Virus record (IMG/VR): IMGVR_UViG_3300009159_008968
Coordinates: 1-64,000 of that record
Length of the DNA: 64,000 nt
Strand: one strand, 5' to 3'
Source: a virus
Of the stretch, positions 16,480 to 24,661 are shown one piece after another (within the stretch, counting starts at the first letter, position 1; every line of letters begins with the position of its first letter). The translations under genes were made by a program, and so were the position numbers. The notes under the pieces are model-generated. The model was not told where the DNA came from. It searched no databases and saw only the letters and a program-made list of their open reading frames with translations.

Positions 16480-17157
16480 ATGAACTTATTAAACAAAGAC
16501 ACTGATTTGGCGAAATATGACTTTTCGCCAAGCCAGTATTATCCCGAAGAACATCCTAAAACCCAAATTTATTTACACCATACTGCAGGAAACTCAAATG
16601 GTTTTAATGTATTTAAAGATTGGGAATCAAATCCCGAAAAAATTGCTACTTGTGTAACGATTTGTGGCAAATCATCTAAAAATGAATTTAAAGATGGTCA
16701 AATTGTTCAAGGTTATAGTTCTAAAAAATGGGCTTATCATTTAGGGTTAAAAGAATCAACATTTCATAACTTTAATGTACCTTATAAATCTTTAGATAAA
16801 GTTTCAATTGGAATAGAAGTTTGTAATTGGGGACAATTGACTTATAAAGGTGGAAAATACTATACTTATGTTAATAGTGTTGTTCCTGCCTCAGAAGTCA
16901 TTGAATTATCCACTCCACATAGAGGATATAAATTTTATCATGCTTATACTGATGCACAAATTATATCAGTAGAGAAACTTTTAAGGTATTGGGGAACACT
17001 TTACAACATTCCATTAAAATACAATGCTGATATCTGGGATGTTTGTCCTAGAGCTTTAAAAGGCGAATCAGGTGTTTTCACACACAACAGTGTCCGTTAC
17101 GACAAGGTTGACGTGTCACCACAACCGAAACTTATAGAAATGCTTAAAACATTATGA
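16480..17157 (+). CDS. N-acetylmuramoyl-L-alanine amidase (Amidase_2)
   Basis: IYLHHTAG, WAYHLG, SIGIEVCNWG, FTHNSVRYDKVD. Confidence 0.85.
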   Translation: MNLLNKDTDLAKYDFSPSQYYPEEHPKTQIYLHHTAGNSNGFNVFKDWESNPEKIATCVTICGKSSKNEFKDGQIVQGYSSKKWAYHLGLKESTFHNFNVPYKSLDKVSIGIEVCNWGQLTYKGGKYYTYVNSVVPASEVIELSTPHRGYKFYHAYTDAQIISVEKLLRYWGTLYNIPLKYNADIWDVCPRALKGESGVFTHNSVRYDKVDVSPQPKLIEMLKTL

Positions 17158-17759
17158 AAAAAATATATTTATTCTTTGCAACTTTATTGTTTGTTTTTTT
17201 TTCTACCTCATTCTCTTATTCTCAAAAAAATTCTATAAAAATTGAGAAAGAAAATTACACTTGCTATTTTGATACAATACTAAAACAACCTTTAGTTGTT
17301 ATGTACAAATTATACAAAGGTGGAGGAGATTGTTCGAGAGCTGGGTTTAGTTTTAAAAATGATTTACCAAATGTTAAAACAGCAACTCAAGCTGATTATG
17401 CTAAATCAGGATATGATAGAGGTCACTTAGCTAATGCTGAAGATTTTGCATATGATTGCAAATTAGATGAACTTACATTCAGATATTATAATTGTTTACC
17501 ACAATCAAAAAATCTAAATAGAGGATTATGGAAACAAAAAGAAGAAGAAACTAGACAACTAAGTCAAATAGATACAATTGTAGTGATTTGTTTCGGAAGA
17601 GATTTCTTTCAAGACAATAAATTAAACGTACCTAGATACTGTGGTAAAGTTGTAAAAGAAAAAAACGGAAAGATTCATTATTGGCTTTTTGATCAAAATG
17701 GAACTTTATTATATCCAGATAAAAATATTTTGAAAGAATATTTAAAATATCTATATTAG
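17154..17759 (+). CDS. DNA/RNA non-specific endonuclease with signal peptide
   Basis: DYAKSGYDRGH and TFRYYNCLPQ..LNRGLWKQKEE; hydrophobic N-terminus. Confidence 0.88.
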   Translation: MKKIYLFFATLLFVFFSTSFSYSQKNSIKIEKENYTCYFDTILKQPLVVMYKLYKGGGDCSRAGFSFKNDLPNVKTATQADYAKSGYDRGHLANAEDFAYDCKLDELTFRYYNCLPQSKNLNRGLWKQKEEETRQLSQIDTIVVICFGRDFFQDNKLNVPRYCGKVVKEKNGKIHYWLFDQNGTLLYPDKNILKEYLKYLY

Positions 17760-17763
17760 TAAT

Positions 17764-18402
17764 ATGGAGTTATTACCATATGAAGAAGAATTTAATGATA
17801 TTTTTTATTTAAGAACTTTTAATCAGGATACACCAGATCAAGAATTAAAATGGCATTTTGATGATGAGAATAGAAAATTTATTCCAACAAAAGGAGATAA
17901 TTGGAAGATTCAAATTGATGAATCATTGCCAGAGGAATTAATTATAGGAAAAGAATATTTTATTCCTGTTGATGTGTATCACCGAATTATAAAAGGAAAT
18001 GGAGATTTAGAAATTAAGTTATATAAACTTGATTCGATTAAAGGAGAATATCCAAAACATACAAGAACATACTTAGAAGATAAAAGGTTTTCAGATAATT
18101 TTTTGTATCATATAAATAACAATATCAAACTTTATCAAAATATTTTTAGATATGGATCTGATGCTTGGTGTGATATAGTACAAGAAGTAAAAGAACTGTA
18201 TGAGAAAGATCTTATTGAACTTGATGAAGAAGAGATGGAATTAGTAAATAATGATTCCGGAAAAATTGTTTTTATTGATAATCAAAAATACATTCTAAAC
18301 ACACCTTTTAAAAATACAGATAACAATTCAGAACATGAGTTTTTTGTTTATATTTGTGATGACGATAAAACAATAAGAAAAATAAATTTTAATGCAGAAT
18401 AA
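17764..18402 (+). CDS. Hypothetical protein with N-terminal cupin-like domain
   Basis: ELKWHFD...YHRIIKG His pattern. Confidence 0.5.
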   Translation: MELLPYEEEFNDIFYLRTFNQDTPDQELKWHFDDENRKFIPTKGDNWKIQIDESLPEELIIGKEYFIPVDVYHRIIKGNGDLEIKLYKLDSIKGEYPKHTRTYLEDKRFSDNFLYHINNNIKLYQNIFRYGSDAWCDIVQEVKELYEKDLIELDEEEMELVNNDSGKIVFIDNQKYILNTPFKNTDNNSEHEFFVYICDDDKTIRKINFNAE

Positions 18403-18916
18403 TTTTAAAAATTTAACACTTTCCATTCTATTGATTTTGGTTTGTGTTTCTAGATTAATTCCACATCCTTACAATTTCAGTCCTGTTGCAAGTATATTTA
18501 TAATGGCTCCTTTATTATTTAATAATAAAAGATGGTCTTTGACTGTTTCTTTTATTCCATTAATAATAAGCGATATGTTAATTGGTAAATTTTTATATCA
18601 CTCTGAAAACTTAATTTATGATGGATTTATCTGGGTTTATTTTTCATATTTTTTGATGTGGTTATTCTCTCAAAAAATAGGAAACACAAAAGGTTTTATC
18701 ATAAATAACTTATCAGCATCGTTGATCTTTTTTTTAATTACCAATGCCGGATGTTGGATAAATAACCCAATGTATAGTCAAAATGTTTTTGGTTTATTTG
18801 AAAGTTATATTGCTGGAATTCCTTTTTACTGGAATACTTTAGCAGGAATTTTGTTTTATTCATCAATAGTTTATTTGATGGAAAAAGGCATAAACAAAAT
18901 TTCTTTCTCTAATTAA
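18392..18916 (+). CDS. DUF6580-type (ECF S-component-like) membrane protein, predicted cobalamin transporter
   Basis: SRLIPHPYNFSPVA, FFLITNAGCW and YIAGIPFYWN; about six TM helices. Confidence 0.7.
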   Translation: MQNNFKNLTLSILLILVCVSRLIPHPYNFSPVASIFIMAPLLFNNKRWSLTVSFIPLIISDMLIGKFLYHSENLIYDGFIWVYFSYFLMWLFSQKIGNTKGFIINNLSASLIFFLITNAGCWINNPMYSQNVFGLFESYIAGIPFYWNTLAGILFYSSIVYLMEKGINKISFSN

Positions 18917-19434
18917 TGAGAATATTTTTCTGAATGCAGAAGAGAATATAGATATTCAAACATTTCGTGATATTGGCTATTGTAAAGTTGAGATTCAAAT
19001 TCATGAAATTCTTCTTTATATTTTTCAAACATATCACTTGATTGACTTTTTGAATATTCTGCATTAGCAATTCTATCACAAATTTTTACAAAAGTTGCAT
19101 ATGGAACTGCTCTTATTCCTGCATAATATTTATCATTTGCCCTCTCCTTTCTGTTTTTACCTTTTTCATTAGTAAGAGCATAAACAATTTCTGCTACTTC
19201 AATACCTAGTTGTGATTTTACATCATTATATGTAACACGAGTATCTTCAATAAGATCATGAGCCCAACATGAAGCTAAAACTATTTCTTGTTCTGAATTA
19301 GGAATTAAAGAAATAAATTTCTTTGCTATTTCAACAACCATATTTAAATGAAATTCATATGGCAAATCATCGTAGAAATGATTTGTTGATTGATGGCAGT
19401 TTACTGAATAATTTTTAGCGTGATCTTCTAACAT
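18913..19434 (-). CDS. HD-domain hydrolase, Mesh1/SpoT-like small alarmone hydrolase
   Basis: LPYEFHL, AHDLIEDT, EIVYALT, VKICDRIAN. Confidence 0.8.
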   Translation of the reverse strand: MLEDHAKNYSVNCHQSTNHFYDDLPYEFHLNMVVEIAKKFISLIPNSEQEIVLASCWAHDLIEDTRVTYNDVKSQLGIEVAEIVYALTNEKGKNRKERANDKYYAGIRAVPYATFVKICDRIANAEYSKSQSSDMFEKYKEEFHEFESQLYNSQYHEMFEYLYSLLHSEKYSH

Positions 19435-19484
19435 GTTTTTAATATATAAATCTAAAAGTAAAGATACTAAAAAAATACAAAATT

Positions 19485-19515
19485 AAAAACCCCGAACCTT
19501 TTGGATCCGGGGTTT
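19485..19515 (-). terminator. Intrinsic terminator closing the ncRNA operon
   Basis: Minus strand AAACCCCGGATCC-AAAA-GGTTCGGGGTTTTT, about 18 nt after the 3' end of RNA B. Confidence 0.8.
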
Positions 19516-19532
19516 AAATTTTTTAATAAAAT

Positions 19533-20395
19533 GGCTGAGATTATACCATTTTGAGGTAGCCTTTGAGATCATTATCCTTTTCGAGGTTCTCTCTTTTATC
19601 CACGGACCTTTCAGTCAACGTATCCACCAGTCTCAGTCTTTAGACTCCTCTCGGAATCTTGACCAACATTCTCGTCAGAGCTGTTCTGCAACCTAGTAAC
19701 ACCAGATAGGATGGCCGTCCCACCACGATGCTTTGAGTCACAAAGTGAAACAGATCTTGCGAACCTGCCTCACACTCAGTTGTCATTGCTGACCTGAGCT
19801 TTAGAGACCTTTTGCTCTTGACGCTAGGAGTCTTGGGCTGTATCTTTAAATTTTTCATTTTTTAAGATGACATAATCCACGAATTTATGAAGGATGTGCT
19901 CCCAGAGTAGCTCTGTTCCTTTTGAGAACAAAATACTACACACCCCTCTGTCAGCTTTGCGGTGCCAACGACCAGATGAAACTAACTCCCACAACTTAAT
20001 TTGTGTTACCAAATTACTTTATAGGTCTTAGCCAACCTTGCTGGTCAAAGCACTTCCCCTTCGCATGAGGTCGCACTTTATAGGTTTCATACATTTCTGC
20101 ATTACGCCTAACTCTGTTATTTCTTTCAATTGGTTGCCCAATTAAATCGTCTAACAGAAAAAACCTTGAGATGTTTCTATTGTACCTCTCGATACTCAAC
20201 TGCACATTCGTTTATGCAATGCTACCTACCGACTTGCCCAGCCATCAATAGCGAACTCTCATTGTTTGGATGTCCTCCCCAACTTCAGGAAGGCGGATCT
20301 TGCGGATGAGTTTTACCCCAAAGGATCATGTGCAAGATTCCTTTTATACTCCGTCACCGGAGCTTATCTTATGGATGCCAAACCACCCAATATTT
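19533..20395 (-). ncRNA. Large structured ncRNA, copy B (~860 nt; GOLLD-like, family unverified; 5' end approximate)
   Basis: Non-coding and GC-richer. GNRA-capped stems CTCCG-GTGA-CGGAG (20349-20362) and GTCA-GCAA-TGAC (19782-19793); 3' long-range helix CTGAGA/TCTCAG; several blocks shared with copy A. Confidence 0.75.
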
Positions 20396-20399
20396 TTAA

Positions 20400-20413
20400 T
20401 CAAAGAACGATTT
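20400..20413 (-). promoter_or_regulatory. boxA-like antitermination element (AAATCGTTCTTTGA)
   Basis: Identical 14-mer at 21351-21364 and a 13-nt match at 21556-21568; resembles rrn boxA (TGCTCTTTAACA / TTCTTTGA). Confidence 0.6.
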
Positions 20414-20414
20414 T

Positions 20415-20486
20415 GTTGACTTTCCGGATTCGAACCGGTTAAACCCACACTCTTCTCGTTGTGGTATTTATTTCGCCATAAGTCAA
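20415..20486 (-). tRNA. Degenerate tRNA-like element (pseudo-tRNA) in the spacer between the two large RNAs
   Basis: Acceptor TTGACTT/AAGTCAA (7 bp); T-arm CCGG-TTCGAAT-CCGG; anticodon-like stem CCACA/TGTGG with a 10-nt loop; D region TGGCGAAATAAATA lacks GG; no CCA. Confidence 0.6.
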
Positions 20487-20499
20487 ATTTAATTTTGAT

Positions 20500-21345
20500 A
20501 GGTTGAGATTACACCATCTCGTGAGGAGACTTTAAGAAGCAGTACGGAATTTCACCTTAACCTCTATATCCACGATTGCTCGTATCCCTCAGTCTCAGTT
20601 AATTTCATCTTACAAGTTTAACCCTATAAAACTTAGTTAACCAATCTTTATCGTCAGAGTTGTTCTGCCTTATCAACCACAATCAAACTCGGAGGAGTTA
20701 AAACATGGAAATTCTTAGTTTTAAGACAAGACAAAGAATGCACCTTTGCACATTCTCCCAGATTAGCATAGTTAGTTACCTAACTTGCTACCGAGAATTA
20801 GAGACCTTTTACTCTTAACGCCATTCAGCATTTATATCGCTTACCATTTTCAGGCTATTCGGCTTATTTATTTGCAAAGCGACAAATACGAATTTATATC
20901 AGATACACTGATGGTAGTGGCTCATTTAAGAATACCACACATCTGATTTGTCAGAATCGATCAAAATCCTGACTGCTATATAAGACACGAATAAGAGTAA
21001 TCCTAAACGACCTTACACAACTGGAATAAAACAAAGTAGTGATTAGCAACTTTATTTTAACTCAAGATATTTCAATCCTGAGCAATCGTAATAGTAATAA
21101 AACGATTTTCCTAGAAGTTCAACTATTGCCATTTCTGACTCAATCCCCTGTTCGCCCAGTTCGGATGTAATAACACAATCAATTAAGATTATGCAGTACG
21201 TTGCTTCCTTGCTTAGATGTCTTGTTTTCACAAGCGAGTACCGTTGTTCATTTTCCGGTATCCCATTTATTCCCCATTGCTGGGGGTTTATCTATCACAG
21301 ATCATGTTACCATGTCTGAAGAGTCTAAGCACTCTTTAATTTCTT
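20500..21345 (-). ncRNA. Large structured ncRNA, copy A (~845 nt; GOLLD-like, family unverified; 5' end approximate)
   Basis: GNRA-capped stems CATG-GTAA-CATG (21303-21314), CCCCA-GCAA-TGGGG (21272-21285), CTTGT-GAAA-ACAAG (21221-21234), AGTTAG-GTAA-CTAACT (20770-20785) and ACGA-GCAA-TCGT (20572-20583); 3' part homologous to copy B. Confidence 0.75.
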
Positions 21346-21350
21346 ATAAT

Positions 21351-21364
21351 TCAAAGAACGATTT
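21351..21364 (-). promoter_or_regulatory. boxA-like element upstream of RNA A
   Basis: AAATCGTTCTTTGA, 18 nt downstream of promoter P3. Confidence 0.6.
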
Positions 21365-21381
21365 CCTTTTAATTGGGACTG

Positions 21382-21411
21382 CAAATATAAATGATTTTTT
21401 TTAATTTGCAA
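21382..21411 (-). promoter_or_regulatory. Bacteroidota sigma-A promoter P3
   Basis: TTG (21411-21409), N19, TATATTTG (21389-21382). Confidence 0.75.
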
Positions 21412-21469
21412 CAATTGTTAATAACTTTATAATTTTTATTTTCAATTGTTTTTTCCCGTTTTGGAGTTG

Positions 21470-21499
21470 CAAATATAGAAAGGTTTTTTCTAATTCCAA
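21470..21499 (-). promoter_or_regulatory. Bacteroidota sigma-A promoter P2
   Basis: TTG (21499-21497), N19, TATATTTG (21477-21470). Confidence 0.75.
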
Positions 21500-21555
21500 G
21501 AATTGTTAATAACTTTTGTTTTTTGTTAATTACAGTCCTAAACTCCAATGCCGAT

Positions 21556-21616
21556 TCAAAGAACGATTATCAAATCAACACTGCAAATATAAAAACAATT
21601 ATTCTTATATTCCAAA
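21556..21616 (-). promoter_or_regulatory. Promoter P1 plus boxA-like element
   Basis: TTTG (21616-21613), N21, TATATTTG (21591-21584), then AATCGTTCTTTGA (21568-21556). Confidence 0.65.
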
Positions 21617-21655: not shown

Positions 21656-22717
21656 CTAAAAAGTTTGATTCCATTTTTCTAGATCTAATTTATATTCTTC
21701 TATAAAGCAAACCCAGTTTTTTTCACTTTTAAAACTGTAATACCAAAGCTTTATTTTGCTAAGATATTGAAGATTAAACTTTTTGAAAAATAGACCTAAA
21801 GATAACTTATTAATAATTGATTTAGATTCTGTTGGTTCTGCTTTATAAAGATTTGAAACCCATGTTATTTCATCAGACACTATTACTGGTACATTATTAT
21901 TTACAAAATCAGCCGCTACTATATTAAAGGTTTCTGTGAATGAAACTTGTAATCCAATATCCATCTTTCTTACTAAGTTAATAAAGTCTTCGTGAGTTAA
22001 CCAGCTATGTTCTACGAGTTTATGTTTAGGGTTATTAATAAATAGATTTCTTAAATTTTTAAGAACAGGATCTCCGTTGTTTTCTACTCTTGCTACATTT
22101 ACATGAAAATGTAATTCCTTGTTAATAGAATTAGCAAACTCTATTGCAGCAACAGCCTGATATAATTGATTCTTTAAAGGTCTGATTGCACCAAAACATC
22201 CAACACTCAAAATGTTTTTATTTTTATTGTGGTATTCATTTTTTTTATCAAATAAATTTACCGGATAATAATTTGGAAGATATATTGTTTTTTTAGGAAG
22301 AATATTATTAAAGTCTTTGTATGTAGTTTTTGAATTTACAGAAACAAAAACATTTTTAAACTTTTGGTACTCATAAACCCACTCCATTGCTATACCTTCA
22401 TTTGCTATAAAAGGTATTTCACTATGAAGTCGTATAATCCATTTTACATTAGGATGTAATTTTGTTAAAACTTCAAATTTAGATGGAACAACCCATAAAG
22501 CTTCAATTATAACAATATCTGCCTTGTATTTTTTAACTTCTCTATCAATTTCATTATTATCTTTTACTTCTATCAGATGAGAGTTGTAACCATTTTTCTG
22601 TAACATTTTGTTAACAAAAGTTGCAGAATTTAAAAGTCCAGAAGATATAGTTTCAATATCCTTGTGTGAGGTCATTCGTTTTTTTAAGATAAACAGAATG
22701 TTAGGAGAAGAGTGCAT
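21656..22717 (-). CDS. Glycosyltransferase (GT-B/GT4-like)
   Basis: YLPNYY, VGCFGAIRPLKNQ, MDIGLQVSFTETFNIVAAD..PVIVS. Confidence 0.75.
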   Translation of the reverse strand: MHSSPNILFILKKRMTSHKDIETISSGLLNSATFVNKMLQKNGYNSHLIEVKDNNEIDREVKKYKADIVIIEALWVVPSKFEVLTKLHPNVKWIIRLHSEIPFIANEGIAMEWVYEYQKFKNVFVSVNSKTTYKDFNNILPKKTIYLPNYYPVNLFDKKNEYHNKNKNILSVGCFGAIRPLKNQLYQAVAAIEFANSINKELHFHVNVARVENNGDPVLKNLRNLFINNPKHKLVEHSWLTHEDFINLVRKMDIGLQVSFTETFNIVAADFVNNNVPVIVSDEITWVSNLYKAEPTESKSIINKLSLGLFFKKFNLQYLSKIKLWYYSFKSEKNWVCFIEEYKLDLEKWNQTF

Positions 22718-22792
22718 GGAAATTGTTTATTTATAAATAGACTTGAAATTGTAATTTCAACACTTTAAAGAAAAGTTTTTTTTAACTTAACA

Positions 22793-24661
22793 TTACTTTT
22801 TCTTCTTATCTAAAATAATTTTTAAAAGATCATCAAAAATTGAAAATTCATTTTTATTTTCAATTACTTCTCCGTCTAATACTTTAGAAATTATTTGTTC
22901 TTTTGCTGTAATCAAATTATCAATATCAACATCAATTGTATTTTGACAAATTAATTTAATAATTTGAATGTTATCAGCTTTTTGTGATGCTCTGTGAATA
23001 CGATCTTCTGCTTGTATTTTACTAGCTGGTTCCCAAGGTAAATCTAGAAACATTAAACAATTTGCTGAAGTCAAAGTCAAACCAACACCTGCTGCACCAA
23101 TTGTTCCTACAAAAACTTTACAATTTTCATCATTCATAAATTTATCTACTGCTTGTTGCTTTTCAATCATATTGTGTTTTCCAGTAAACCATACTGCAAC
23201 ATCTTTAAATTGCTCATAAATAAACTGAGAAGCACTTATAAATTGAGAAAAAACTACTATTTTTTCATCTCCTTCAATTATATTATTTATAAATTCAACT
23301 GAACACTTAGCTTTATGTAATGAAGTAAATTGTTTTAACTTTTGAATTCTTGCAAGATGTGTCATTTTATTGTCATCATCTTTTGATTCGTTTACAAGAC
23401 CATTTTCAATATAATTATATTCTTTTAATACATCAGATTTTAATTCTATTGGTATTGTTGTAAATGTTTTAGGGGGTAAAAATTTTAATATATCTTTTTT
23501 TAATCTCCTCAAAAAGTAAGGAGCAATTCTTTTGTATAATTCTTCTAAATTAGAATACCCATCATAATTCCAATGACCGAATTTATCTTGATGAGCGTTA
23601 CAATATCTAACTCCAAAATTATGTGCATTTGACCATTCCTTAGAATCAATTAAGTTTAATAAGGGAAAAAATTCATAAGGCCGATTTTTTATTGCTGTAC
23701 CGGTCATTAGAATTTTTTTACTTGATTCTTTGAATGCTTTCTTTATTATTTGAGATCTAAATGCTGTAGGATTTTTAATATAATGTGCTTCATCCATAAC
23801 AATTAAATCATAATCGTTTGGATTTAAAACTTCACCATCCTTATCTTGCTTATTAATAAATTGATGTGATTTTGATTTCAAGACTTTGATTCTACCGCAA
23901 TTTGGACATTTATCATATTTTTTAACATCGGTAATACCTTCCCATTTACAATTATAATTTAAACATTTATGAGAGTAGTTGAAATCAAAATATGATTCTA
24001 ATGATTCATAATTTATTATATGAAATAAACTCTCTTCTTTAGTAAATGTTTCAATGTTGTCTTTTTTTCTAGGTTTAAATTTATATATATAACATTTTTC
24101 ATGAGTAAACTTAAGAATTTCTGCTCGCCAGTTTAATTTTAATGATGCAGGGACAATTAGAAGCGTTTTAAAATTGTTTTTTATTGCATAAGCCATTGCG
24201 CTAAAAGATTTACCAACACCCGGCTGATCCCCTAATATTGCGTTCCCACCGCATATTTCAAAGAATTTAACAGCTTGTTTCTGATAAATAAAAGGTTGTA
24301 TTTTAAGAAAATCATAATTGATATCTGTCACATCAATTTCAGTTTCTTTTAATTTAATTGCATCGAATGCTTTCTGGCTATGCTCCAGTAATCGATCCAC
24401 TATTTGGGCTGATTCAGTAGCAGAGATATTATCAAATTCAAATTTTATTCCATTTTCCCTACAAAATTTAATTATTTTAGCTAATCCGGCTTCGTTAGCC
24501 AGTCTATACCAATCTTCTTTAGTTCCATTGTCTGGAAGCAATATACTGTTCATTTTAGTCTGACATTGCTCCTTTGGTATACTTTTTAAAAAATTGAATA
24601 ATAACTCATTATATTTGAATCTTATTTCAAAATTTGATCTTAATTTCTTTATTTCTACCAT
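22793..24661 (-). CDS. SNF2/HARP-like DEAH helicase with Cys4 insertion
   Basis: LGDQPGVGKS, DEAH, MTGTAIKNRP, QAEDRIHRASQ; CxxxxC...CPNC insert. Confidence 0.9.
   Translation of the reverse strand: MVEIKKLRSNFEIRFKYNELLFNFLKSIPKEQCQTKMNSILLPDNGTKEDWYRLANEAGLAKIIKFCRENGIKFEFDNISATESAQIVDRLLEHSQKAFDAIKLKETEIDVTDINYDFLKIQPFIYQKQAVKFFEICGGNAILGDQPGVGKSFSAMAYAIKNNFKTLLIVPASLKLNWRAEILKFTHEKCYIYKFKPRKKDNIETFTKEESLFHIINYESLESYFDFNYSHKCLNYNCKWEGITDVKKYDKCPNCGRIKVLKSKSHQFINKQDKDGEVLNPNDYDLIVMDEAHYIKNPTAFRSQIIKKAFKESSKKILMTGTAIKNRPYEFFPLLNLIDSKEWSNAHNFGVRYCNAHQDKFGHWNYDGYSNLEELYKRIAPYFLRRLKKDILKFLPPKTFTTIPIELKSDVLKEYNYIENGLVNESKDDDNKMTHLARIQKLKQFTSLHKAKCSVEFINNIIEGDEKIVVFSQFISASQFIYEQFKDVAVWFTGKHNMIEKQQAVDKFMNDENCKVFVGTIGAAGVGLTLTSANCLMFLDLPWEPASKIQAEDRIHRASQKADNIQIIKLICQNTIDVDIDNLITAKEQIISKVLDGEVIENKNEFSIFDDLLKIILDKKKK

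Follow-up and report, generated by a model that had tools for sequence, protein, structure and literature searches.

GOLLD RNA (RF02032), reportedly described by Weinberg and colleagues in 2009, is among the largest non-coding RNAs of bacteria and phages. Its location in phages, its link to tRNAs, which can even lie within its linker, and its assembly into cages are already known (PMC12286853, PMC12990946), the cages having been seen by cryo-electron microscopy (Kretsch et al. 2025, PMC12286853). In the ribosomal RNA (rrn) operons of bacteria, boxA is required, and suffices, for NusB/S10 recruitment and for assembly of the rrn antitermination complex, which is Rho-resistant, elongates faster and has been proposed to act as a folding chaperone (PMC4807359, PMC6614797, PMC8632103, PMC10250234). 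Here we analysed positions 1 to 64,000 (hereafter, the window) of IMG/VR record IMGVR_UViG_3300009159_008968, a phage sequence of 135 kb in all, and found on its minus strand, at 21616-19478, a unit holding two GOLLD RNAs, A and B, in tandem. Judged from its sequence, this is a real, conserved two-gene GOLLD operon carrying rrn-like control words, and we consider it likely that the region as a whole is one stable-RNA operon for two GOLLD paralogues under rrn-like control. The RNA family itself is not new; what appears to be new is the rrn-like two-GOLLD operon. A first-pass annotation of this DNA knew of no description of such a tandem rrn-like arrangement. In the literature that we searched, with Weinberg 2009 and Morgado 2020 lying outside that search, no paper mentioned tandem GOLLDs, and none brought boxA or antitermination into connection with GOLLD.

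The order along the minus strand is P1, boxA1, P2, P3, boxA2, RNA A, spacer, boxA3, RNA B and terminator (Table 1), and all parts of the layout given in the first-pass annotation, i.e., the promoters, the boxA-like words, the two RNAs and the terminator, were located where it had put them. Like a bacterial rrn operon, the unit joins tandem strong promoters to a boxA of host sequence soon after them, has one terminator and yields untranslated structured products; moreover, boxA recurs in the spacer, ahead of the second of the large RNAs, and this spacer is tRNA-shaped. Unlike an rrn operon, its products are GOLLD and not rRNA, and its spacer element does not look like a functional tRNA. The unit was also said to be a GC-richer island with no credible open reading frame (ORF) and at least seven stems capped by GNRA tetraloops, all on the minus strand. 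This description agrees with our counts: G+C is 0.35-0.44 within the unit versus 0.22-0.29 in the flanks, the longest ORF spans 72 aa, and a count of GNRA hairpins whose stems are perfect over 4 bp or more gives eight for the minus strand and zero for the plus strand (shuffles: mean 0.36, maximum 3).

Two further lineages show the complete layout, at about 80-93% identity: one from IMG/VR (L006/L007, identical to each other across the unit) and one from metagenomes (L134/L135/L139). Both keep the promoters, the three boxA words, the two RNAs, the spacer and the terminator. A pattern search for the A-B junction returned only L006/L007 in IMG/VR and one further lineage in metagenomes, and a scan for the GOLLD 3'-end word, in a stretch fetched around each locus, revealed a second GOLLD copy at none of the 41 other IMG/VR GOLLD loci. 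Contigs L143 and L146 were considered as a second tandem type and rejected, as the GTTCTTTGA that lies 106 nt past their GOLLD is followed by a 198-aa ORF, and the word is probably there by chance.

Both large RNAs match the same Rfam family. RF02032 is a model of the conserved GOLLD 3' domain, with 416 positions and an Rfam cut-off of 150 bits. RNA B scored above this cut-off (178.2 bits, E 1.9e-48, model 1-416 of 416, window 19948-19532), and RNA A matched the model over the same full span with 69.2 bits (E 3.6e-17, model 1-416 of 416, window 20947-20500). By these matches A and B are GOLLD RNAs, i.e., members of a known family, and the notion of a new RNA family was discarded. The first-pass annotation had proposed such a covariance-model check and had cautioned that a GOLLD match would remove the novelty of the family but not that of the layout, a caveat that holds; its picture of two giant structured RNAs in tandem in one unit is likewise borne out, at ~850 and ~867 nt and with compensatory pairs in both. 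The only words that A and B have in common are GOLLD core words (AAAGGTCTCTAA, GCAGAACA.CTCTGACGA, ACTGAGACTG..GGATACG, CGTGGATA and TAATCTCA.CC), and the sequence with which B opens (TTAAAAATATTGG...) is homologous to that opening single GOLLDs of other phage contigs. As in GOLLD RNAs described so far, each copy combines a match to the full conserved 3' domain with a variable, structured 5' domain of ~400 nt, to a length of ~850 nt, and both are phage-borne and tied to tRNA-like sequence. Unlike in those RNAs, two diverged paralogues stand head to tail in one unit here, A falls under the Rfam cut-off, and no real tRNA lies nearby.

The score of A, and those of its counterparts in the relatives, which are also below the cut-off (74.5-86.5 bits; E 4e-17 to 4e-21 overall), would suit an RNA that is merely a decaying duplicate, or pseudogene, of a functional GOLLD B, as would the branches of A, which are 3-7 times longer than those of B. 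We hold this to be very improbable, and the pseudogene reading was rejected on the strength of covariation. Not only does A span the full model, but the 132 pairs predicted for its 3' domain stay paired in 97.7% of their cells across the three lineages, and 23 of them are changed on both sides, where slid controls gave 0-3 and shuffles 10.3 +/- 2.4. Further compensatory pairs occur in its 5' domain, and A is retained in all three lineages with a boxA of its own. The covariation that the first-pass annotation had proposed to look for thus amounts to 23 + 14 compensatory pairs in A and 20 in the 5' domain of B, drawn from three lineages that are 80-93% identical and hence offer few independent changes. 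When 38 GOLLD 3' domains were placed in a tree, the copies of A and B from all three lineages fell into one clade (support 100/99), within which A and B are ~1.1 substitutions per site apart. This topology fits A and B being old paralogues that arose by duplication within the phage lineage, with the caveat that long branches are involved.

Upstream of RNA A, three tandem promoters fit the Bacteroidota sigma-A consensus TAnnTTTG, in agreement with the strong host-type promoters proposed earlier; this consensus is that of the flavobacterial sigma-A -7 box (PMC9723704). Exact TATATTTGCA occurs three times in the window, each time in the unit (21591, 21477 and 21389), and five times in the 135-kb record; of the remaining two, one precedes the phage's tRNA operon and the other is at 118926. 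The latter (genome G000:C1 118926, minus strand) has no boxA after it. Inside a leader of 68-72% identity, -7 boxes, -33 words and boxA words either do not vary among the three lineages or keep to the consensus: the -7 box of P1 is invariant, P3 is entirely conserved, and P2 reads TACATTTG in the relatives, still fitting TAnnTTTG.

The word that follows these promoters and recurs in the spacer, TCGTTCTTTGA, has no exact copies other than these three, whether in the window or in the record, and its spacer copy is fully conserved next to spacer sequence of 49% identity. We compared it with 30 rrn loci in genomes from the phylum to which Pedobacter puniceum belongs (Bacteroidota as defined by GTDB). 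There, GTTCTTTG(A) stands in 27 of the 30 16S leaders, 73-210 nt ahead of 16S, and in 29 of the 30 16S-23S spacers, and the phage word CGTTCTTTGA carries, in all three copies, the same 9-nt rrn boxA core. The repeated word that had been called boxA-like is thus identical to the boxA core that precedes 16S and 23S genes across the host phylum. Several of the host rrn leaders have TAnnTTTG 23-32 nt upstream of boxA, the phage distances being 19 and 22 nt. Moreover, the only tRNA operon of the phage (Leu-Met-Arg, 104841-104538) has TATATTTGCA and then TTGTTCTTTGAAAA upstream of it. In that stretch (genome G000:C1 104538-104900, L151), TATATTTGCA is followed 3 nt on by TGTTCTTTGAAAA, and the tRNA-Met within the operon is preceded by a second TATATTTG-type box.

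To what extent the word accompanies GOLLD elsewhere can be read from other phage contigs, where G[CT]TCTTT[GA]A occurs in a 240-nt interval at the GOLLD 5' edge in 13 of 28 non-redundant loci (1.2% expected per interval), these 13 loci representing about four or five independent lineages. In low-GC GOLLD contigs the word is GTTCTTTGA behind a TAnnTTTG promoter. GOLLD contigs whose G+C is 43-50% and whose promoters are of the TTGACA type have GCTCTTTAA or GTTCTTTAA in its place, the former being the proteobacterial form of boxA. Since its form shifts with contig G+C and promoter type, the word at the GOLLD 5' edge tracks the host-type rrn boxA. The single boxA-GOLLD loci of uncultured Bacteroidota phages (L050, L084, L116 and others) resemble our unit in their TAnnTTTG promoter, sometimes a small hairpin, GTTCTTTGA and the first bases of GOLLD B; they differ in having one GOLLD, whereas our unit contains two diverged copies of the boxA-GOLLD module and a tRNA-shaped linker. 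We rejected the idea that boxA is a universal GOLLD feature, as the GOLLDs of Vibrio phages PG07 and 70E35.6 and of Caulobacter phage phiCbK have none upstream.

These same cultured phages bear on another interpretation, in which TCGTTCTTTGA resembles boxA without acting as one and may instead be the conserved segment with which the GOLLD 5' domain opens, or else the target of a phage protein or of a nuclease. Besides their lack of such a word, this interpretation can point to the word's constant place at the 5' edge of a GOLLD and to the conservation of the bases after it (TTAAAAATATTGG). We nevertheless consider it unlikely, given that its 9-nt core is identical to that of most rrn leaders and spacers of the phylum, that boxA1 sits ~200 nt ahead of any GOLLD, just past P1, that a variant lies upstream of the phage tRNA operon, which has no GOLLD, and that the same place holds GCTCTTTAA in the higher-G+C contigs with TTGACA promoters. 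Of note, several human-gut ROOL sequences in a published ROOL alignment (PMC12286853, Supplementary file 5) begin with UGUUCUUUGAUAUG, so that some ROOL RNAs may be headed by a boxA-like word too.

Turning to the junction of the two RNAs, no promoter between A and B is conserved in the three lineages compared, and the minus strand has no terminator-like site between A and B; because of these two absences, B is most simply read as co-transcribed with A. The sole terminator closes the unit, and its stem is preserved via compensatory changes in L135. The alternative is that A and B are separate transcription units, B starting in the spacer, and that the apparent operon is a juxtaposition. A TAAATTTG that fits TAnnTTTG does lie at 20491 in the window's spacer; however, it comes without a TTG at -33 and is missing at the same place in L006 and L135, and no terminator-like site stands ahead of B on the minus strand; the spacer's boxA3, moreover, makes sense for a polymerase coming from upstream. 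We therefore regard separate units as improbable. Inside the 3' domain of GOLLD A, at 20733-20758 on the minus strand, a terminator-like hairpin of 11 pairs is followed by a T-rich run; structural hairpins such as this one are a reason why a termination-resistant polymerase would help.

The spacer was the one feature for which the first-pass annotation held only in part: it had announced a 72-nt tRNA-like spacer, and a tRNA-shaped piece is present, but it is not a tRNA by either ARAGORN at default or the Rfam tRNA model. In the minimum-energy fold of the window's sequence, the T-arm hairpin adjoins the 3' strand of the closing stem, and RNAalifold across the three lineages yields a four-arm, cloverleaf-like consensus in which one T-stem pair reads GC/AU/UA. 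The closing stem covaries (TTGACT/AGTCAA versus TCGACT/AGTCGG), the T-loop is canonical and its word TTCGAAT is retained (TCCGAAT in L006), and the inner part of the element varies in length and sequence among lineages. ARAGORN at default called no tRNA here, relatives included, and the Rfam tRNA model gave no match on 121 nt even when hits up to E 10 were admitted. ARAGORN reported a 72-nt 'tRNA-???' with a 4-nt anticodon (window 20486-20415) only with its threshold set at 80%, and a real spacer tRNA was accordingly rejected. ARAGORN found no tRNA gene in the 64-kb window either. The three tRNAs of the record lie at 104.5-104.8 kb, 83 kb from the unit, so that only the tRNA-shaped spacer adjoins the GOLLDs.

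A tRNA or tRNA-like element covalently joined to GOLLD is a likeness that the unit shares with the Mycolicibacterium GOLLD (PMC12990946) and with L143; in those cases the tRNA lies inside one GOLLD, between the 5' and 3' domains, whereas here the element stands between two complete GOLLDs. The L143 locus (L143:4771-5192; also in L146 and L136) lies in a dense tRNA island and contains one GOLLD, which scores 157-159 bits, encloses a tRNA in its linker (Rfam tRNA match at L143 5057-5124) and has a 3'-end word that matches that of GOLLD A.

From these features, the spacer is probably a decayed spacer tRNA whose acceptor/T-arm part has been kept. RNase P needs no more of its substrate than an acceptor/T-arm minihelix, and we see about equal grounds for and against the spacer still directing processing. 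That it is a mere tRNA relic with no processing role, A and B staying joined or being cut by other nucleases, is a serious possibility, if one we would place somewhat short of an even chance. Apart from its failure with tRNA models, the spacer encodes no CCA, its fold is no more stable than that of shuffled sequences (z -0.4 to -1.7), and it is the fastest-changing part of the unit, down to 49% identity between lineages; set against this are the kept T-loop word, the covarying T-stem and the persisting closing stem. The phage also encodes a 390-aa protein of the CCA-adding/poly(A) polymerase family (genome G000:C1 97900-99072; L150:1401-2573), with a PolyA_pol head (E 3e-35) and RNA-binding domains. 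An enzyme of this family could act on tRNA-like 3' ends.

Table 1. Parts of the two-GOLLD unit in window coordinates, with sequence identity among the three lineages that carry it.
Feature	Positions	Strand	Description	Identity among three lineages
Leader				68-72%
P1	21584..21616	minus	-33 TTTG (21616-21613), 21-nt spacer, -7 box TATATTTG (21591-21584)	
boxA1	21556..21566	minus	TCGTTCTTTGA; 19 nt past P1 -7 box; invariant in three lineages	
P2	21470..21499	minus	TTG, 19 nt, TATATTTG; repeat AAAGTTATTAACAATT (21516-21501) ahead; no boxA after P2	
P3	21382..21411	minus	TTG, 19 nt, TATATTTG; same repeat AAAGTTATTAACAATT (21428-21413) ahead	
boxA2	21351..21361	minus	TCGTTCTTTGA; 22 nt past P3 -7 box; abuts GOLLD A	
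RNA A	20501..21350	minus	~850 nt	
GOLLD A variable 5' domain	20949..21350	minus	125 predicted pairs, 14 compensatory (RNAalifold, three lineages)	78-90%
GOLLD A conserved 3' domain	20501..20948	minus	diverged paralogue; RF02032 match	81-85%
Spacer	20411..20500	minus	90 nt	49-75%
tRNA-shaped element	20415..20486	minus	72 nt; 7-bp closing stem TTGACTT/AAGTCAA, inner hairpin, T-arm CCGG-TTCGAAT-CCGG	
boxA3	20400..20410	minus	TCGTTCTTTGA; in spacer, abuts GOLLD B	100%
RNA B	19533..20399	minus	~867 nt	
GOLLD B 5' domain	19949..20399	minus	143 predicted pairs, 20 compensatory (three lineages)	81-88%
GOLLD B conserved 3' domain	19533..19948	minus	RF02032 match	92-93%
Terminator, intrinsic	19478..19515	minus	12-bp stem and T run (19515-19487); sole terminator, closes unit	

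Taken together, these results suggest how the unit would work as one stable-RNA operon. Host RNA polymerase would start at P1-P3, and each boxA would load NusB/S10 with NusA/NusG, as in the rrn antitermination complex, upon which the polymerase would move quickly along ~2 kb of RNA that is rich in hairpins and untranslated, undergoing neither Rho-dependent nor hairpin-induced termination. BoxA3 would load the complex anew ahead of B, which is what the spacer boxA does for 23S rRNA. The tRNA-shaped spacer would then be cut by RNase P and a 3' tRNase, thereby releasing A and B, which would fold and oligomerise as GOLLD RNAs do. In this scheme, Nus recruitment by the phage boxA words, co-transcription and processing are inferred.

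Several observations weigh against it. To the few independent changes behind the covariation, and the failure with tRNA models, ordinary fold and rapid change of the spacer, one has to add that about half of the sampled GOLLD loci are without boxA, as are the three GOLLDs of cultured Vibrio and Caulobacter phages. Within this window, moreover, there is no clear boxB or boxC and no convincing hairpin between promoter and boxA, and, again unlike in a bacterial rrn operon, no leader-trailer helix of the kind cut by RNase III was found around A or B by duplex folding (-5.2 and -12.7 kcal/mol).

As to its source, the record most likely stems from an uncultured jumbo phage that infects Bacteroidota. 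Its 135 kb are estimated to be 55% complete, and the sister contig L006 reaches 222,069 bp at 87% completeness, in accordance with the jumbo phage named in the first-pass annotation. The Bacteroidota host is deduced from the TAnnTTTG promoters, from translation starts that are free of Shine-Dalgarno-like words and often have an A at -3, and from the relatives of a neighbouring DUF6580 gene, which are found in Pedobacter, Chitinophaga, Chryseolinea and Balneolaceae. Across the whole record, a Shine-Dalgarno-like 4-mer at -20 to -5 precedes none of the 81 ORFs of at least 150 aa, and 44 of these 81 have an A at -3, i.e., Bacteroidota-style translation initiation; the same start-site pattern has been described for Flavobacterium johnsoniae (PMC6847099). 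Blastn searches with the whole unit and with a single-GOLLD relative against 50,697 phage records returned nothing, or uncultured huge phages only; no cultured relative was recovered. The genes around the unit (window 16480-19434 and 21656-24661) encode an Amidase_2 (lysin-like) protein, an Endonuclease_NS (non-specific endonuclease) and the DUF6580 protein. A gene for an HD-domain protein lies directly downstream of the terminator, and the neighbourhood further includes a 353-aa protein without a Pfam match and, upstream and on the same strand as the unit, an SNF2-family helicase.

Having two GOLLD RNAs in one unit raises the matter of how they assemble. In GOLLD cages, the J13/15-L20 pairing, predicted from covariation, is an intermolecular kissing contact within the half-shell (Kretsch et al., PMC12286853). 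When the corresponding strands in A and B are taken to be the pseudoknot of the Rfam model, which is an assumed assignment, they read 5' CGTTAAGAG[T/C] and 3' [A/G]CTCTGACG in copy A, and 5' CGTCAAGAG[C/T] and 3' GCTCTGACG in copy B. These putative kissing words are nearly alike in A and B despite the ~1.1 substitutions per site between the two RNAs, and are unrelated in other GOLLD lineages; being nearly identical, they would make A and B cross-compatible. However, at one pair of the kissing strands the window's A carries T-A and the remaining A copies C-G; this change is compensatory within A and argues that A pairs with A. On balance, we find it doubtful that A and B co-assemble into hetero-oligomeric GOLLD cages as opposed to two homomeric ones. 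Mixed cages, if true, would be the first natural RNA-only hetero-assembly of such size. A single transcript, as deduced from the layout, would supply A and B in equal amounts.

For the phage, the arrangement would mean that a Bacteroidota-phage GOLLD is wired like rRNA, with stacked host promoters and a host boxA, a wiring that it shares with the phage's tRNA operon. Such wiring predicts very high, Nus-dependent and Rho-resistant expression by the host polymerase, and the antitermination complex, as a proposed RNA chaperone, may help these giant RNAs to fold. The locus also presents a tRNA-shaped piece that is used, or left over, as the linker of two giant RNAs. For the GOLLD family, it offers a natural two-paralogue system in which cage mixing could be tested directly against split functions, and either answer would narrow down the role of the cage.

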